Positions 21,001 to 27,000 of a DNA stretch of 50,105 nt are shown here, in pieces (the stretch's first letter is position 1; each line of letters starts with the position of its first letter). The stretch is from IMG/VR virus record IMGVR_UViG_2630968414_000007, one strand, 5' to 3'. The position numbers were made by a program. Source of the stretch: a virus (taxonomy: Duplodnaviria > Heunggongvirae > Uroviricota > Caudoviricetes).

Positions 21001-24000
21001 CAGATATTGCCATTCCCCCTCCTCATAACACCGTCGGACAACGCAAATCGTAAATCAGCACGGAAACAGAAAACGGCAGTTCCCCCTGCACGAGGTCTTC
21101 CCGCTCAGCAAGATCCGGATTCCGGTACAGCATCCCGGTCAGTCGCATGGCAGCCCCCTTCATCCGGGTTAATGCCTCACCAGGGATCAGCTCACCGTCC
21201 TCACTAATCACTTTATCCCGGCTGCCCTGGATGTAGGCCAGCAGCACGGCGGTAGCCTGACGAACCTTGTCCATCAGCATCTCATCATCCGCGTCATGGT
21301 CAACACGCAGATGTGCCTTGATTTCTTCCAGTGTCAGTAATGCTGTCACTTTCCACCTCTTGCATCCCGCCCACGTTTTGCAGCCAGCGTCCAGCCAGAT
21401 GCATGCGCATCCCCGGTTTATCGGCGGTCATACTGTTGCAGTGCCACAGCGAGCCCCCCCACGTCACCGTATCACCGGGGTGGTAAGTTTCGCCGATTCT
21501 GAACACACCACGGTAGAGCATCACCGGCAGGGAAAATGTTTTTTCCGTACGCTGGCCACTGCTCTGCCGGACCACCACAGAGAACGACCGTTCACCCGTC
21601 ATGCTGACGTCAATATCCGCCACCCCGTCAACCAGGCATTCCCATCCCCGCATCCCGTACGTTTTTTCATACGCCCGCCAGAGTCCACCCTGGTGTGTGG
21701 CATACGAGCCCCGGGGAAAGGATTTTTGATCGTCAATGGCGGGGAGTATTTCCAGTGCCGTGGCATCACGCCCGTCCTGCGGAGCCGGCAGGGCACTCAC
21801 CGCCTCCAGAACCGCCTTCTGCAGAACATCCGGATCGTAGTCACGACCATCACGCGGAACAGGAATATGGCTTACCGCCTCCTTCACCATCTGTTCAAGC
21901 ATCGGATGCACATCATCCGGAGTGATACTTTTACCGTCTGCCGGTACCGGTATTTTCGCGACCGCATCATTCACCGCCTTCTGCAGAACATCCGGATCGT
22001 AGTCACGACCATCACGCGGAACAGGAATATGGCTTACCGCCTCCTTCACCATCTGTTCAAGCATCGGATGCACATCATCCGGAGTGATACTTTTACCGTC
22101 TGCCGGTACCGGTATTTTCGCGACCGCATCATTCACCGCCTTCTGCAGAACATCCGGATCGTAGTCACGACCGTCGCGCGGAACAGGAATATGGCTCACT
22201 GCCTCTTTCACCATCTGCTCAAGCATCGGACGCACATCATCCGGGGTGATACTTTTGCCGTCTGCCGGTACCGGAATATTCGCAACCGCATCATTCACCG
22301 CCTTCTGCAGAACATCCGGATCGTAGTCACGACCGTCGCGCGGAACAGGAATATGGCTCACTGCCTCTTTCACCATCTGCTCAAGCATCGGACGCACATC
22401 ATCACCCGTCACGCACTTCTGTAATACCACAGACTGAGAAGCCAGTTTTTCTTCAAACGTTTGTGCCTGCGCGGCTATTTTCTCCTCAAATGTGCGCTGT
22501 AAATCCGCCAGCACTGTGGAAAATTCTTCTCCCAGTGCACGAATAATGGACAGTTCCCGTTCCGTCATTTTCTCAGTATCCCCCCTGAACATCGCTTTCA
22601 CCGCATCATGCTCTGTTTCACTGATTGCCTTATTACCGTCAGATGCGCCGTCAGGCAGCTGTGATGAAACTGTTTTCCCGGCAGACGCGAACGGATCCTC
22701 ACGGGCATCACGACGGGACAGCGCCTCCAGACTGTAGTTCTGCTGCTGAAGATACAGTGCATCACCGCCGGCCAGGGGCGGCAGGTTCTCCCGTTTACGG
22801 GCCTCATTGGGCGTGAGAAGCGTATTTTTCACCGCATCCCCCAGCGTTTTCATGCGCCGCTCACTGTCCATTCTCAGCAGCGTGGTGACATCAAATTCTG
22901 TACTCTCGTTTTCCCCCGTTTCCAGCGCCTCATCCAGTAACAGTTCAATGGACTCAATCAGCGTCTGCAGGCACTGGGAATAATACTGCTGCTCCAGCGC
23001 CTCCACGTTGTCACTGGAAGGCGGTTGTCCCACGCCAATCTTGTAGGCCGGGACACGGAACACCGAACAGACAATTTCAGCGGTCATCTTCAGTTGTTCC
23101 ACCGTCTGCGCATCCACCGGTGAAAACGTCGTGGGGTTGTATTTTGCCCCGTTGCTCAGAATGGCCGTTTTCCCCGCATTTTCGCCTGTATACCCGCTGT
23201 CCCAGTTGCTCTTCAGTTTTTTCGCATTTTCTTCCGTAATACTGCCGGGGATCTCAATCACCCCGGACGGCCTGCCGCCATTTCTGAAAAAAGACGTCGA
23301 ATTTTCCTGAATATGATGCCCCTGCGTGGCCGCCAGCCCGGCGGCATACACCGGCGGCAATCCTATAAGCGGATGAAAAAAACAGTTAAACCGGTCGTGG
23401 ATCACTTCCCGGGCAGGCACCGTCACCGCCTCCGTGATCCCGCAGTTCCGGTCCGGCGTGATGCGGTAGAACACCTCGCCGTCATCCGCCACCAGAGGTT
23501 CAACCCGGCTCCAGTCCAGAATACGCAGTTCTTTGATCTGCCCCCGGGCATTACGGATTTTCAGCACCACCGTATTGCCATGACGCAGTTTGGCGTTCAG
23601 CCACAGTTCAAAAAACTGGATGCGGTTCTGCTGGGCGTTGGGACGACGACAGAGGCGGGCAATATCCCCCCGGCGCGTTTCCCTGCGTATCCCATGCGCA
23701 TCCGTCTGCATAAGACGCAGCCGCATTTTGGCGATATCCTGGGATATCAGCGAAATACATGCAAACACCGCATGAAAGGAGAGGACGGCTTCAGGATCGG
23801 CTTTCACGCCCTGCTGCCAGGCGCCGGAAAAGGGCTCAGCCACCGCCTGAAACAGGCTGGTCCAGCCCGCCTCTCTTACGTCACGTCCTGATTTCTGGTT
23901 TTTTCGGGTTCGCCGTAAAAGGTTCCACATTCGCCATGCTCCGCATCACGTTTCTTTTTCTGACCTGCCGGACGTCGCACCGTGATGTACTCCGCCTTTC

Positions 24001-27000
24001 CCAGGCGAACCAGCACCTCCGCACACGGCTGTGCCACATCACGGATATCCCCGGCCCGGGCATCATGCGTGCCCTGCAGATATCGGATCTTTGCCATAAC
24101 CTGTTACGGGAGGCGCACGCCTCCCGTCCTCCTTATCAGACTCAGCCGCCGGACGCACTGCCGTAGTTCACTCCGGTGATCACCGCCACCGCCGCAGTAC
24201 GGCGACGACGCCAGTTGATCCAGCGCTCCGCACGGATGGCCACGCTGCCTGTCTGGAACATGGAAACCAGCTCCACCGGGGACGGCGTGGTACTGTCGCC
24301 GCCCGGCTCAGACTGCATTTCCAGTGATGCCTCGCGGGACATATCCACTGCCACGCCGCCGTCATCCGCCAGATAAATATCCGGGGCATTCACCAGCACC
24401 AGCTGGTCACCCACGTACTGGGAGACAATCACCGGCAGCCCCTGGAAGGAGCCACCCAGCAGGGTCATGTCCGGGTATTCCTTCTGACCCAGCGCATTTT
24501 TACGCATGGACAGTGCCAGGGCATTGGTGCTGGACATCAGCCAGACCGCACCGGTGGGCTGCAGGTTTGCTGCCACAAACTGTCCAAACGCAGCCTCGGC
24601 ATCCGCATCCGGGTTACCGGTTGATGCCGTGCCCTTCACATCATGGGTGATGGACGCCGGGGAGACATCTGCCACTGCGGCTTTTTTCGGGTCCACAAAG
24701 TCTGTATCCAGACGCGCCACCACCGCTTCCGCCAGCGCATTACGGACCAGTGCATCAGCAGCCGGACTGGAAAAACGGATCAATTCTTCCGTCAGTACCG
24801 CAATGGCCGACACCTTCGCATGACTGAAGGTGATGGATTCAAAATCAAACTTCGTCAGGGGTTTTGCCTTACCCTCACCCACCCAGCCGGCAGCACCGCC
24901 GGACACCTGGGCGTGCACACGGATATTGAATGGCACCTGACGAAGTGCAGGGATCCCGCCCTGACCAAATCGCCCGATAATGGTCTGCGGACGCAGGTAA
25001 TCAATAAAGTCCTGTGCGTATTCCTGATATTCAGACAGGCTGCCTGCCCACTGCGGATCCGTGGTGGTCCCCGCGCCCACTGCCGATTTCAGGACATGAT
25101 GCAGACGACTGTCATCCGGATACTGACGACGGGCCACTTCCAGGGCTTCAGATCGGACGCCTTTAGCCGCAGCCAGCGATTTGGCAAAGCGGGCGAAGCC
25201 AATCCCCTTATCCAGTTTCTGCTCCACACGGATCACCGGCGCAGAAGCCACCGCGGCCACATTCCCGTTACCGGCCTGTTTCACCGGCTGCGCCGTGGCG
25301 GCCTTACCGGCTTCCAGTTCACGCAGGCGCTTCAGGTGCGCATCCACCTGACGGATTTCCGCTGCGGTGTTGTCGTAATGCTCTTCCTCCTCCACATCCA
25401 GCGTGCGCCCTTCCTCTGCGGCTTTGGTCATGACCTCCTCAAGGGAGGCTGCCAGCGCTGCACGCTTGTTTTCAAAACTTTTAATCTGTTCGCCAATATT
25501 CATTATGGTCTTTTCCTTATGAAAAACGGTTGTTGACTGTGCCGCAGCGCCGGCAGAAGATGCGATTTTCACCACCGGTTTCCGGTTGCCGGACGCGGCA
25601 GAAAACGGGCGGTCGTAAGATTTAATGGTCCGGATGGTGCATTCCGCATTCGCGGGCATGGTGACGGCAGACACCTCCATCAGTTCCCAGCGCAGAAAAT
25701 GCAGTCCGCCTCCGTCCAGAAAGGTGTATTCATGGGGACGGAAGCCCACGGACAGCCCCCTGACCAGCCCGGTCTTAATGGCCGCCCAGACCTCATCCAG
25801 CCGGGCAGCCAGTTGCGACGGCATATCCGGTACGGGCTTCACCAGTGTTGCCGTGATTTCCAGCCCTTCGCTGACCCGGCGCACCGTACACTGCCCCACC
25901 GGGCGGGAATGGTCATGCTGCCAGAGAAACGGGATCGCACTGCCAAACTCCGCGCCCTCCGGCTCCAGGATGTCACCATCCCGATCCGGAGAAGGCGTTG
26001 ACGCAATCCCGGTGATCACCCGTTCATCCTCACTGAAGGATTTCACCGTCAGCAGGGAACAGGCCCGTTTAAGAGTCACATCAGCCTCCTGAAAATAAAA
26101 AAACCGCCGCAGCGGTTCATGATGGTTACAGTGTGAACAGGGTTATATGAAAAAAACCGCATATTCTTTCTTTTTCGGTTCCGGGTTAAGGGACATCAGG
26201 GAGACCGCATTGAACAGCGCCATCAGCGGGTCAATTTTTCCCCGTCCACTGGCCTGTTTGGTGATAAGAATGGCGTTACCTTTAGGCTCCACCCGGGCAT
26301 TGCCGACACACCAGGCCATCAGGGGCTGGTCACCATGCACCAGCACCCCTTCAGCCAGTTTGCGCTCGGTGGTTTTAATGGCCCCGCCCAGTTTCCAGCC
26401 CTGGCTTATCCCCACCACAATTCCGTCGGGGATCCCGGCTTCCGCCAGTGAATCCAGAATCTGCCCCACCCCTGACGGGTCAATACCGATATGGTCCAGT
26501 AACTCAGCCTCATGAATGCGACGCACATATTCCGCCACTTCCGCCGTGTCATCCCCGACACGCCGGACAATGGTCATATCTCCACAGGCAACAAGATCCT
26601 GAAACCGGGACGCCTCGCTCTTCCGTCGGACCACCGCGGTTTCATGCGCCCAGGCATGGCCCCAGCCCAGCCATTCGCGGGTTTCCCTGTCACGGCCAAT
26701 CACGTACATTCCCAGCAGATCATCCAGGCCCCCGCCGTCAATCCCCACCGTCACCACATCAGCGCGCTGCAGGATATCGTCCAGGCTGACGCGCCTGCCC
26801 TGCTGCTCCCAGAAATCCGCACCCGCCCAGCGGTCAGAACGCAGGGCAAGACCAATTTCCACATTGGCGTGTTTTGACATGAAGCCCCGGAATGTCTCTT
26901 CACCGGCTTCCCGTGCTTTTCGATACTCCCGGTACAGAAAGGCCTCATCCACTGAATAGCCGAGATTCGGATTGACCATGGCGAGGTTTTCCATCAGCAG

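Follow-up and report, generated by a model that had tools for sequence, protein, structure and literature searches.

How is the production of a protease and of a capsid protein apportioned when both lie in one reading frame, and how is the gene behind them started when no Shine-Dalgarno motif stands at the normal distance from its start codon? These questions are raised by the head module of a tailed virus (Caudoviricetes), IMG/VR record IMGVR_UViG_2630968414_000007, of which a stretch of 50,105 nucleotides (nt), referred to here as the window, was analysed. On the minus strand, a gene for the large terminase subunit (TerL) is followed by an open reading frame (ORF) of 645 amino acids (aa) in which a prohead protease and the major capsid protein are fused, by a small gene of 73 aa behind a palindrome, and by the portal gene (Table 1). 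Our best overall explanation is that the fusion ORF carries nested translation starts, that the small gene uses a ribosome-binding site bridged by a hairpin, and that the small gene itself has a role in the head; taken together this account is reasonably probable, and its parts, which differ in strength, are considered separately below.

The protease-capsid reading frame

A preliminary description of the window had proposed that protease and major capsid protein are encoded as one ORF, and a domain search of the 645 aa bears this out. Both Peptidase_S78 (PF04586; residues 48-152) and Phage_capsid (PF05065; residues 386-635) lie over their curated Pfam cut-offs, with 35.1 bits against 21 and 52.7 against 24.2, respectively. 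The model of the whole HK97 capsid protein, TIGR01554, scored 78.3 against a cut-off of 27.5, its positions 3-355 falling on residues 204-584, and phrog_617 covers the full length of the ORF. The stricter NCBIfam equivalog for prohead proteases, TIGR01543, scored 45.3 against a cut-off of 59. In a BLASTP alignment with HK97 gp4 (E = 3e-8), whose catalytic residues we take to be Ser114 and His65, Ser110 of the fusion aligns exactly to Ser114 and the invariant His55 falls one column off His65. A family named 'prohead protease/major capsid protein fusion protein' (NF045541) scored 51.9 against a cut-off of 525; the present fusion shares its architecture but is a different fusion lineage. For the fused architecture, 'major head and protease protein' (phrog_4523) is the standard name, and 'major capsid protease fusion protein' is used in actinophage genome notes (PMC12760985).

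The 645-aa ORF is thus shown to comprise a serine protease (residues ~1-165), a variable linker, and a complete capsid protein with its own coiled-coil delta/scaffold domain (residue ~193 onward). An AlphaFold2 (AF2) model of the whole fusion, built on a 14-sequence alignment, reached a mean predicted local distance difference test (pLDDT) score of 40 and was dropped as a guide to the domain limits for its poor quality; it is beta-rich with low confidence over residues 6-138, and its informative parts are disorder at 138-193 and confident helices at 195-261.

An ORF of this kind could also be produced by an assembly error or by a recent, pseudogene-type joining of two genes, and in HK97, where protease and capsid genes are separate but only 2 nt apart, one error could join them. 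The relatives leave this idea with next to no credit. Homologues of the fusion number 2406, and among the matches listed (120) nearly all are of about 645 aa with both domains, in Salmonella, Enterobacter, Klebsiella, Serratia, Pantoea, Kosakonia and others; a single cluster holds 9916 member sequences, and the fusion persists at 47% identity in alpha- and beta-proteobacteria. The fusion is a stable family trait rather than a sequencing artefact. A single 1079-aa E. coli database protein (P0052) has TerL_ATPase, S78 and capsid domains in one chain, and is most likely a frameshift or gene-calling artefact that fuses TerL to the fusion ORF.

The order terminase, protease-capsid fusion, portal, which had been remarked upon as a departure from the usual scheme, is present in the window and was followed through 28 related loci, drawn from one-genome-per-species contigs with fusion homologues of 47-80% identity that are mostly full-length, and including Rhizobium, Methylobacterium, Brucella, Haematobacter and Diaphorobacter. 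A portal gene lies 3' of the fusion ORF in all 28, and of the 26 loci with sequence available upstream, 25 have TerL 5' of it (one match being weak). The fuller order of TerL, fusion, small ORF and portal is retained in gamma-, alpha- and beta-proteobacterial relatives, and a published contig table gives an equal succession of TerS, TerL, a 1935-nt capsid gene, a 168-nt hypothetical gene, portal and connector (PMC8156552). The arrangement is unlike that of HK97, yet normal in its own large family. A terminator-like hairpin with a good T-run (26091-26118, minus strand) separates the TerL stop from the ribosome-binding site of the fusion ORF, within what should be a single late operon.

In an alignment of 14 diverse homologues, the linker (residues 166-192) is variable and rich in indels, and ends at an invariant Met193. 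All 25 full-length homologues have a start-competent codon at this position, with AAGGA, AAGGG or GAGGA 7-10 nt upstream; 24 loci have ATG, and one (L021) has TTG, preceded by AAGGAA. Scored over a distance of 4-12 nt, a Shine-Dalgarno-like motif precedes Met193 in each of the 19 loci with Met there, and such a motif also stands before the annotated fusion start of 19 out of 20 homologues. The remaining conserved Met columns have it in 0-12 of 25, and only the annotated start and Met193 have it throughout. Nesting of the lambda C/Nu3 type calls for an in-frame start codon inside the ORF that is conserved, stands at a domain boundary and has a Shine-Dalgarno motif, and such a codon is present here.

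It is probable, on this pattern of conservation, that the fusion ORF is translated from two in-frame starts, with the GTG at 26079 giving the full chain and the ATG at 25503 (Met193) giving a 453-aa scaffold-capsid product. Such a gene could have arisen from an HK97-like ancestral arrangement, with protease and capsid genes 2 nt apart, through a fusion that retained the old capsid-gene start. The 645-aa and 453-aa chains would co-assemble, a minority of subunits would bring the protease into the prohead, and the protease would then cleave off everything N-terminal of about residue 330-340. This would be the nested logic of lambda C/Nu3, prolonged through the capsid gene.

Alternatively, all capsid subunits could be made as the full 645-aa chain, with Met193 and its purine-rich motif kept as protein sequence only, which we consider rather unlikely. 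Several points weigh against a nested start. The AAGGA before Met193 doubles as codons for semi-conserved Lys-Gly or Lys-Glu, which could be conserved as linker or as a helix N-cap, so that part of the motif conservation could be at the protein level. We estimate that about 415 copies of a 330-aa N-terminal part could fit inside a T=7 prohead, and no public record here annotates a nested gene within the fusion ORF. The poor AF2 model meant that the domain limits had to be taken from profile matches, and the case for the internal start, like that for the split ribosome-binding site discussed below, is built from sequence conservation. Selection on the protein would nevertheless have to account for the fact that the residues encoded by the motif vary (KG, KE, QG, TG, ED), and that wherever it falls on an X-Gly pair (Lys, Gln or Thr before Gly) the Gly codon is GGA (18 loci) or GGG (1 locus) and never GGC or GGT, even in high-G+C alpha-proteobacteria. 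In L021, Met193 is replaced by a Leu codon, TTG, which is start-competent, and the other conserved Met codons are without the motif. The G+C content of the fusion ORF has its minimum at the Met193 site (0.29 against a mean of 0.60), and this site coincides with position 3 of TIGR01554, the whole-capsid model.

The intergenic hairpin and the small gene

The AAGGAGG that had been described 30 nt upstream of the small-ORF ATG was found at that distance, and the palindrome between the two, previously called near-perfect, is present and is in fact perfect over 22 nt. It folds as a 9-bp G+C-rich stem (ACGGGAGGC/GCCUCCCGU) with the loop GUGC, which starts immediately after AAGGAGG and ends 8 nt before the AUG; the predicted intergenic fold has -19.5 kcal/mol. 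In the spacer, AACAGGUU, there is only an AGG 2 nt from the ATG, and no Shine-Dalgarno motif at a normal distance. An intrinsic terminator at this hairpin was ruled out, as the tail behind the stem, GUAACAGGUU, lacks a U-run and the site is absent from the output of the terminator scan. Also rejected was a mini-ORF within the hairpin (GTG at 24118, 9 nt after AAGGAGG, with the 4 codons V-R-L-P before a stop), whose start is absent from the second E. coli haplotype and from all other genera. Rfam gave nothing at the junction other than a match to mir-138 (E = 0.87), which is due to chance.

The window contains roughly four times as many perfect inverted repeats of 8 bp or more as shuffled sequence does (19 entries, from 12 sites, against 4.7 +/- 2.2 entries), and the 22-nt palindrome is among the longest. 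It is the conservation of the layout across relatives that settles that it exceeds chance. In 16 of 18 diverged enterobacterial junctions, the capsid stop is followed by a few variable bases, a GGAG-type motif, a perfect GC hairpin of 7-9 bp, 6-10 nt without a Shine-Dalgarno motif, and the ATG, and these comparative data support the earlier suggestion that folding could draw AAGGAGG and ATG together. The stems vary by clade and are each perfectly paired (GGCGGGG/CCCCGCC, GCGGGGA/UCCCCGC, CGGGAGGC/GCCUCCCG). A scan of IMG/VR for diverged junctions returned only E. coli copies of 95-100% identity, which were used for haplotypes and not for deep covariation. Among 80 E. coli copies of the junction there are two main haplotypes, between which the closing pair changes from A-U to G-C (a compensatory change), G-U wobbles occur and most spacer bases differ; both have a spacer of 8 nt and an unchanged GGAGG. 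The junction shows three features of split ribosome-binding sites of the T4 gene 38 and 25 type, namely, a distant motif, a bridging hairpin between motif and start, and a layout and pairing that are kept in relatives.

The explanation that we favor, by a little more than even judgment, is that the hairpin protects the 3' side of the capsid mRNA and, when folded, makes the small gene start from a split ribosome-binding site, in that folding would shorten the gap between GGAGG and AUG from 30 nt to 8 nt. The hairpin could, however, be only a post-capsid terminator or mRNA 3'-end stabilizer that bridges nothing, in which case translation of the small gene would either be weak and lack a functional Shine-Dalgarno motif or depend on re-initiation after the capsid stop 44 nt upstream, and the upstream GGAGG would be at most a standby or retention site. 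A hairpin does stand right after the capsid stop in alpha-, beta- and gamma-proteobacterial relatives and in lambda (E-FI), with the Shine-Dalgarno motif 3' of the hairpin in lambda and in the alpha- and beta-proteobacterial loci; a short T-run follows the stem in many relatives; the equivalent hairpin in the HK97 record is annotated as a putative terminator; and two enterobacterial loci (L013 and L026) have a hairpin with TTTTT and then 22 nt to the ATG. The last two loci and all alpha- and beta-proteobacterial relatives keep the hairpin without a free Shine-Dalgarno motif 5' of it, so bridging was not the original reason for keeping the hairpin, and the folding energy of the junction is ordinary for its G+C-rich composition (z = -0.96). 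On the other hand, the hairpin of the window has no U-tract, a GGAG-type motif is held directly 5' of the stem in the 16 junctions while the sequence upstream of the motif is free to vary, and the spacer never contains a Shine-Dalgarno motif and is constrained in length, which is not expected if the hairpin alone mattered. We therefore regard the explanation without bridging as doubtful. The hairpin itself is, by its distribution, older than the split layout, which makes a second role probable; it probably acts on the capsid message, either as a weak terminator or as a 3' shield, and in the enterobacterial/HK97 lineage would have come to lie within the ribosome-binding site of the next gene.

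The small ORF overlaps the portal start by 55 nt, or 18 codons (portal ATG at 23930), as had been noted. It is short, annotated as hypothetical only, unmatched by any Pfam family (at E up to 1) or NCBIfam family, and not conserved in its final 18 residues, all of which would suit a chance ORF in the capsid-portal gap. The chance of this is very small, given that the protein matches the whole profile of phrog_829 (E = 3.7e-39) and that its homologues form 121 clusters in Enterobacterales, all of them unnamed. Homologues of 51-58 aa occupy the equivalent position in 17 of the 28 related loci, and the first 37 residues are conserved at 36-60% identity with conservative changes (M.K[IV][RK]YL..THD..G...[VL]....A..L...G..E[YF]) ahead of a variable basic tail. 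Conservation extends to the ATG and to the TAATG at which the gene meets the portal gene, and the folded domain is predicted with good confidence. By these signs the 73-aa ORF can be taken as a real conserved gene. In relatives it terminates on the portal start: where one of them (L004) reads GGC TAATG TGG, the window reads GGC GAATG TGG, and a single T-to-G change has removed the stop and given the 18-codon read-on, so that the overlap is a lineage-specific stop loss and not a design feature. The ending of the small ORF on the portal start in relatives, together with the portal GGAG inside the small ORF, suggests that the small gene is translationally coupled to the portal gene.

AF2 predicts a beta-beta-alpha-beta domain for residues 2-37 of the small protein (pLDDT 82-88) and a disordered tail; GINS B-domains and the prophage protein YqbF were named with this domain, and a Foldseek comparison against viral models matched many small uncharacterized phage proteins, one of which is a DUF7210 protein. 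From the model we newly propose a fold like that of the L9 N-terminal and lambda gpFI C-terminal domains, the likeness to ribosomal protein L9 being as close as that to gpFI. Attempts to name the protein by sequence were negative in Pfam and NCBIfam, the profile search of the PDB was empty, and hhalign against lambda gpFI gave a probability of 0.1%. Sequence methods hence connect the small protein to gpFI nowhere, which counts against a shared role, and the idea that it is a minimal head-binding packaging helper of the gpFI kind is a lead, not a finding, and one that we hold to be possible but doubtful.

Differing ORFs of 59-139 aa lie between the capsid and portal genes in alpha- and beta-proteobacterial loci (L020-L025, L028 and L029). 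Several of these have an 'A..L..LG.A' helix motif like that of the enterobacterial small protein, with proline-rich or basic tails, and they may be its distant relatives. In Proteus mirabilis (L018, 6942-7221), no hairpin follows the capsid gene, and an AGGAGG lies 8 nt before a different 73-aa ORF (MAVIQKINVGEKANDGTGDTLRDAF...).

Setting, coordinates and significance

The 6.5-kb block formed by this module has 99.2% DNA identity to Enterobacteria phage YYZ-2008 (genus Pankowvirus) and 95-97.5% identity to many Stx1a-, Stx2a- and Stx2c-converting phages, with 94 matching phage records; of 5426 complete E. coli genomes, 1244 have the 601-nt capsid-portal junction, in many cases with 100% identity. 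It is the head-morphogenesis block of a Pankowvirus-type lambdoid E. coli prophage of the YYZ-2008, Stx1a and Stx2c phage kind. Across terminase, fusion ORF, small ORF and portal, YYZ-2008 and long-tailed Stx1a/Stx2c phages such as 2851 and 1717 have 95-99% DNA identity to the window, with equal gene order and annotated genes. What sets the window apart is a 1-nt deletion near the portal 3' end, which gives 876 aa instead of 861; in other respects the module is theirs. All four genes are already annotated in public records (YYZ-2008 and E. coli RefSeq), as terminase large subunit, 'major capsid protein' or 'major head protein/prohead protease', 'hypothetical protein' for the 73-aa ORF, and portal, and the PHROGs families of the block are phrog_617, phrog_829 and phrog_2271. 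The head module is hence common and already catalogued, and both the fusion and the gene order are in databases. Literature searches on protease-capsid fusions, internal starts and the accessions of these proteins returned no experimental work on the head module; the results of those on the phages themselves were screened at the level of title and abstract.

Table 1. Features of the head module, in 5' to 3' order on the minus strand
Feature	Position	Strand	Basis
TerL gene, 553 aa	26143-27804	-	Pfam TerL_ATPase, TerL_nuclease
Terminator-like hairpin GAACCGC-TGCG-GCGGTTT	26118-26101 (26118-26091 with T-run)	-	Consensus terminator scan
AGGAGG Shine-Dalgarno motif, 5 nt before fusion-ORF GTG	26090-26085	-	Sequence reading
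Fusion ORF, 645 aa, GTG start at 26079	24142-26079	-	Pfam, phrog_617, TIGR01554, BLASTP
Parts of fusion ORF: HK97-type prohead protease, linker, coiled-coil delta/scaffold-like domain, HK97-type major capsid protein	24142-26079	-	
Protease domain, residues ~1-165	25585-26079	-	Pfam and BLASTP
Internal AAGGAA Shine-Dalgarno-like motif, 9 nt before ATG 25503	25513-25518	-	Conservation in homologues
ATG of Met193, proposed in-frame start of 453-aa scaffold-capsid product	25501-25503	-	Alignment
AAGGAGG Shine-Dalgarno motif, after TGA GTCTGAT, directly 5' of hairpin	24134-24128	-	Sequence reading
Perfect 22-nt palindrome ACGGGAGGCGTGCGCCTCCCGT	24127-24106	-	Fold and inverted-repeat scan
8-nt spacer AACAGGTT between hairpin and ATG	24105-24098	-	Sequence reading
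Small gene, 73 aa, ATG at 24097, phrog_829: predicted 38-aa folded domain and basic disordered tail	23876-24097	-	
GGAG Shine-Dalgarno motif of portal, 8 nt before portal ATG, within small ORF	23939-23942	-	Sequence reading
GAA codon (TAA stop in relatives), last base is A of portal ATG	23930-23932	-	L004 compared with window
Portal gene, 876 aa, HK97-type portal domain and ~480-aa C-terminal extension	21300-23930	-	Pfam Phage_portal residues 54-382; TIGR01537

The C-terminal extension of the portal protein is missing in most relatives, whose portals match residues 1-450 only. Within it, a 162-nt tandem repeat (21811-22403, minus strand; residues ~510-705) is present in 3.7 copies of 97% identity with a 54-aa unit (ITPDDVxPMLEQMVKEAVSHIPVPRDGRDYDPDVLQKAVNDAVAxIPVPADGKS), and a faint CBM_5_12-like motif follows the repeats near the portal C-terminus. 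The deletion relative to YYZ-2008 lies in a C/G run at ~21395-21400 and shifts the last ~20 portal codons, and the shifted ORF runs 50 nt into the next gene (21023-21349). The portal gene is labelled as frameshifted or as a pseudogene in several related records, and the copy in the window may be slightly decayed. Elsewhere, three tRNA genes (Arg-tct, Arg-tcg and Met-cat) are encoded at 35647-35896 on the minus strand, a frequent finding in lambdoid prophages of the Stx type. Further inverted repeats, perfect over 9-10 bp, lie at 6319-6343, 12561-12584, 36020-36043, 38633-38654 and 39033-39054; flanking A and T runs make those at 6319 and 36020 resemble two-way terminators.

The observations of the preliminary description are correct, and its interpretation stands so far as comparison of sequences can judge. 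What the analysis adds are new points, none of a new kind: a split ribosome-binding site and a nested start, both probable, and a fold assignment for the small protein. Joined into a single picture, which as a whole we offer only tentatively, a dual-purpose hairpin of HK97 and many enterobacterial prophages would shield the capsid mRNA and bridge the split site that sets the expression of the next gene, two nested starts would leave the protease on only a fraction of the capsid subunits, and the small protein would be a minimal packaging helper of the gpFI type. To our knowledge, no hairpin bridge, nested start or gpFI-type role has been described for this common prophage family. About one in four complete E. 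coli genomes carries the head module, as do many Shiga-toxin phages, and correct models of its genes hence matter for annotation: a second, nested coding feature should probably be added to the fusion ORF, and predictors that look for a Shine-Dalgarno motif 5-10 nt ahead of a start codon would overlook the start of the small gene. Should the split site work, a mechanism shown only for T4 genes 38 and 25 would extend to temperate HK97-like phages and be tied to the long-noted hairpins behind capsid genes. The general understanding of phage assembly is unchanged by these findings.

Comparison with lambda, T4 and HK97

By its annotation, lambda nu3 is nested with C, the two genes having a common 3' end. 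The likeness to the fusion ORF would lie in an in-frame internal start and in a shorter, abundant assembly protein whose C-terminal part also belongs to a longer chain bearing the protease; unlike in C/Nu3, the shared part in the window would extend through the capsid protein, and the two products here are proposed. Nested protease and scaffold genes are also found as I/Z in phage Mu and UL26/UL26.5 in herpesviruses. Lambda offers a second parallel in FI, which lies directly 3' of the major capsid gene and behind a hairpin, as does the small gene. At the E-FI junction (L031, 1659-1705), TAA is followed by the hairpin ATGGCCC-TTCG-GGGCCAT, a T-rich stretch, GGAGGAG and the ATG; lambda thus shares the hairpin behind the capsid gene, with a ribosome-binding site that is ordinary. 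The head-binding domain of gpFI is C-terminal, after a helical domain, whereas the domain of the small protein is N-terminal and is followed by a basic tail, and there is no sequence similarity between the small protein and gpFI (PDB 2lsm domain). The C-terminal domain of gpFI reportedly binds the capsid protein. According to Popovic et al. (2012), as cited in PMC4493119, gpFI is a packaging chaperone.

The split sites of T4 were proven by mutagenesis, reporter assays and structure probing, and on hairpin folding the gap is reduced from 22 to 5 nt in gene 38 and from 27 to 11 nt in gene 25 (PMC3014915). As in these genes, the Shine-Dalgarno motif of the small gene is too distant when counted linearly (30 nt), a stable hairpin lies wholly between motif and AUG, and close, but not distant, relatives keep the layout; the reduction from 30 to 8 nt predicted for the window is within the T4 working range. 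The T4 cases are experimental, whereas that of the window is known from comparative sequence. Unlike those of T4, the hairpin of the window comes immediately after the major capsid gene, a place at which other phages carry a terminator-like hairpin.

With HK97, the window shares a protease homologous to gp4, with an aligned catalytic Ser, and a capsid part that is matched by the HK97 capsid protein models, although in HK97 the two are separate genes 3' of the portal gene, and in the window they are fused and 5' of it. The gene behind the hairpin is also unrelated, being the adaptor gp6 in HK97 and a phrog_829 protein in the window, and HK97, like relatives of the window module, has a short T-run after the hairpin, which the window does not. 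The gp5-gp6 junction of HK97 (TGA T GGAGG GGGCGGG GAAA CCCGCCC TTTTAACGT ATG; L112, 5183-5221) nevertheless has the layout of the window, with GGAGG directly 5' of the hairpin, the gp6 ATG 9 nt past the stem, and no Shine-Dalgarno motif in the stretch between.

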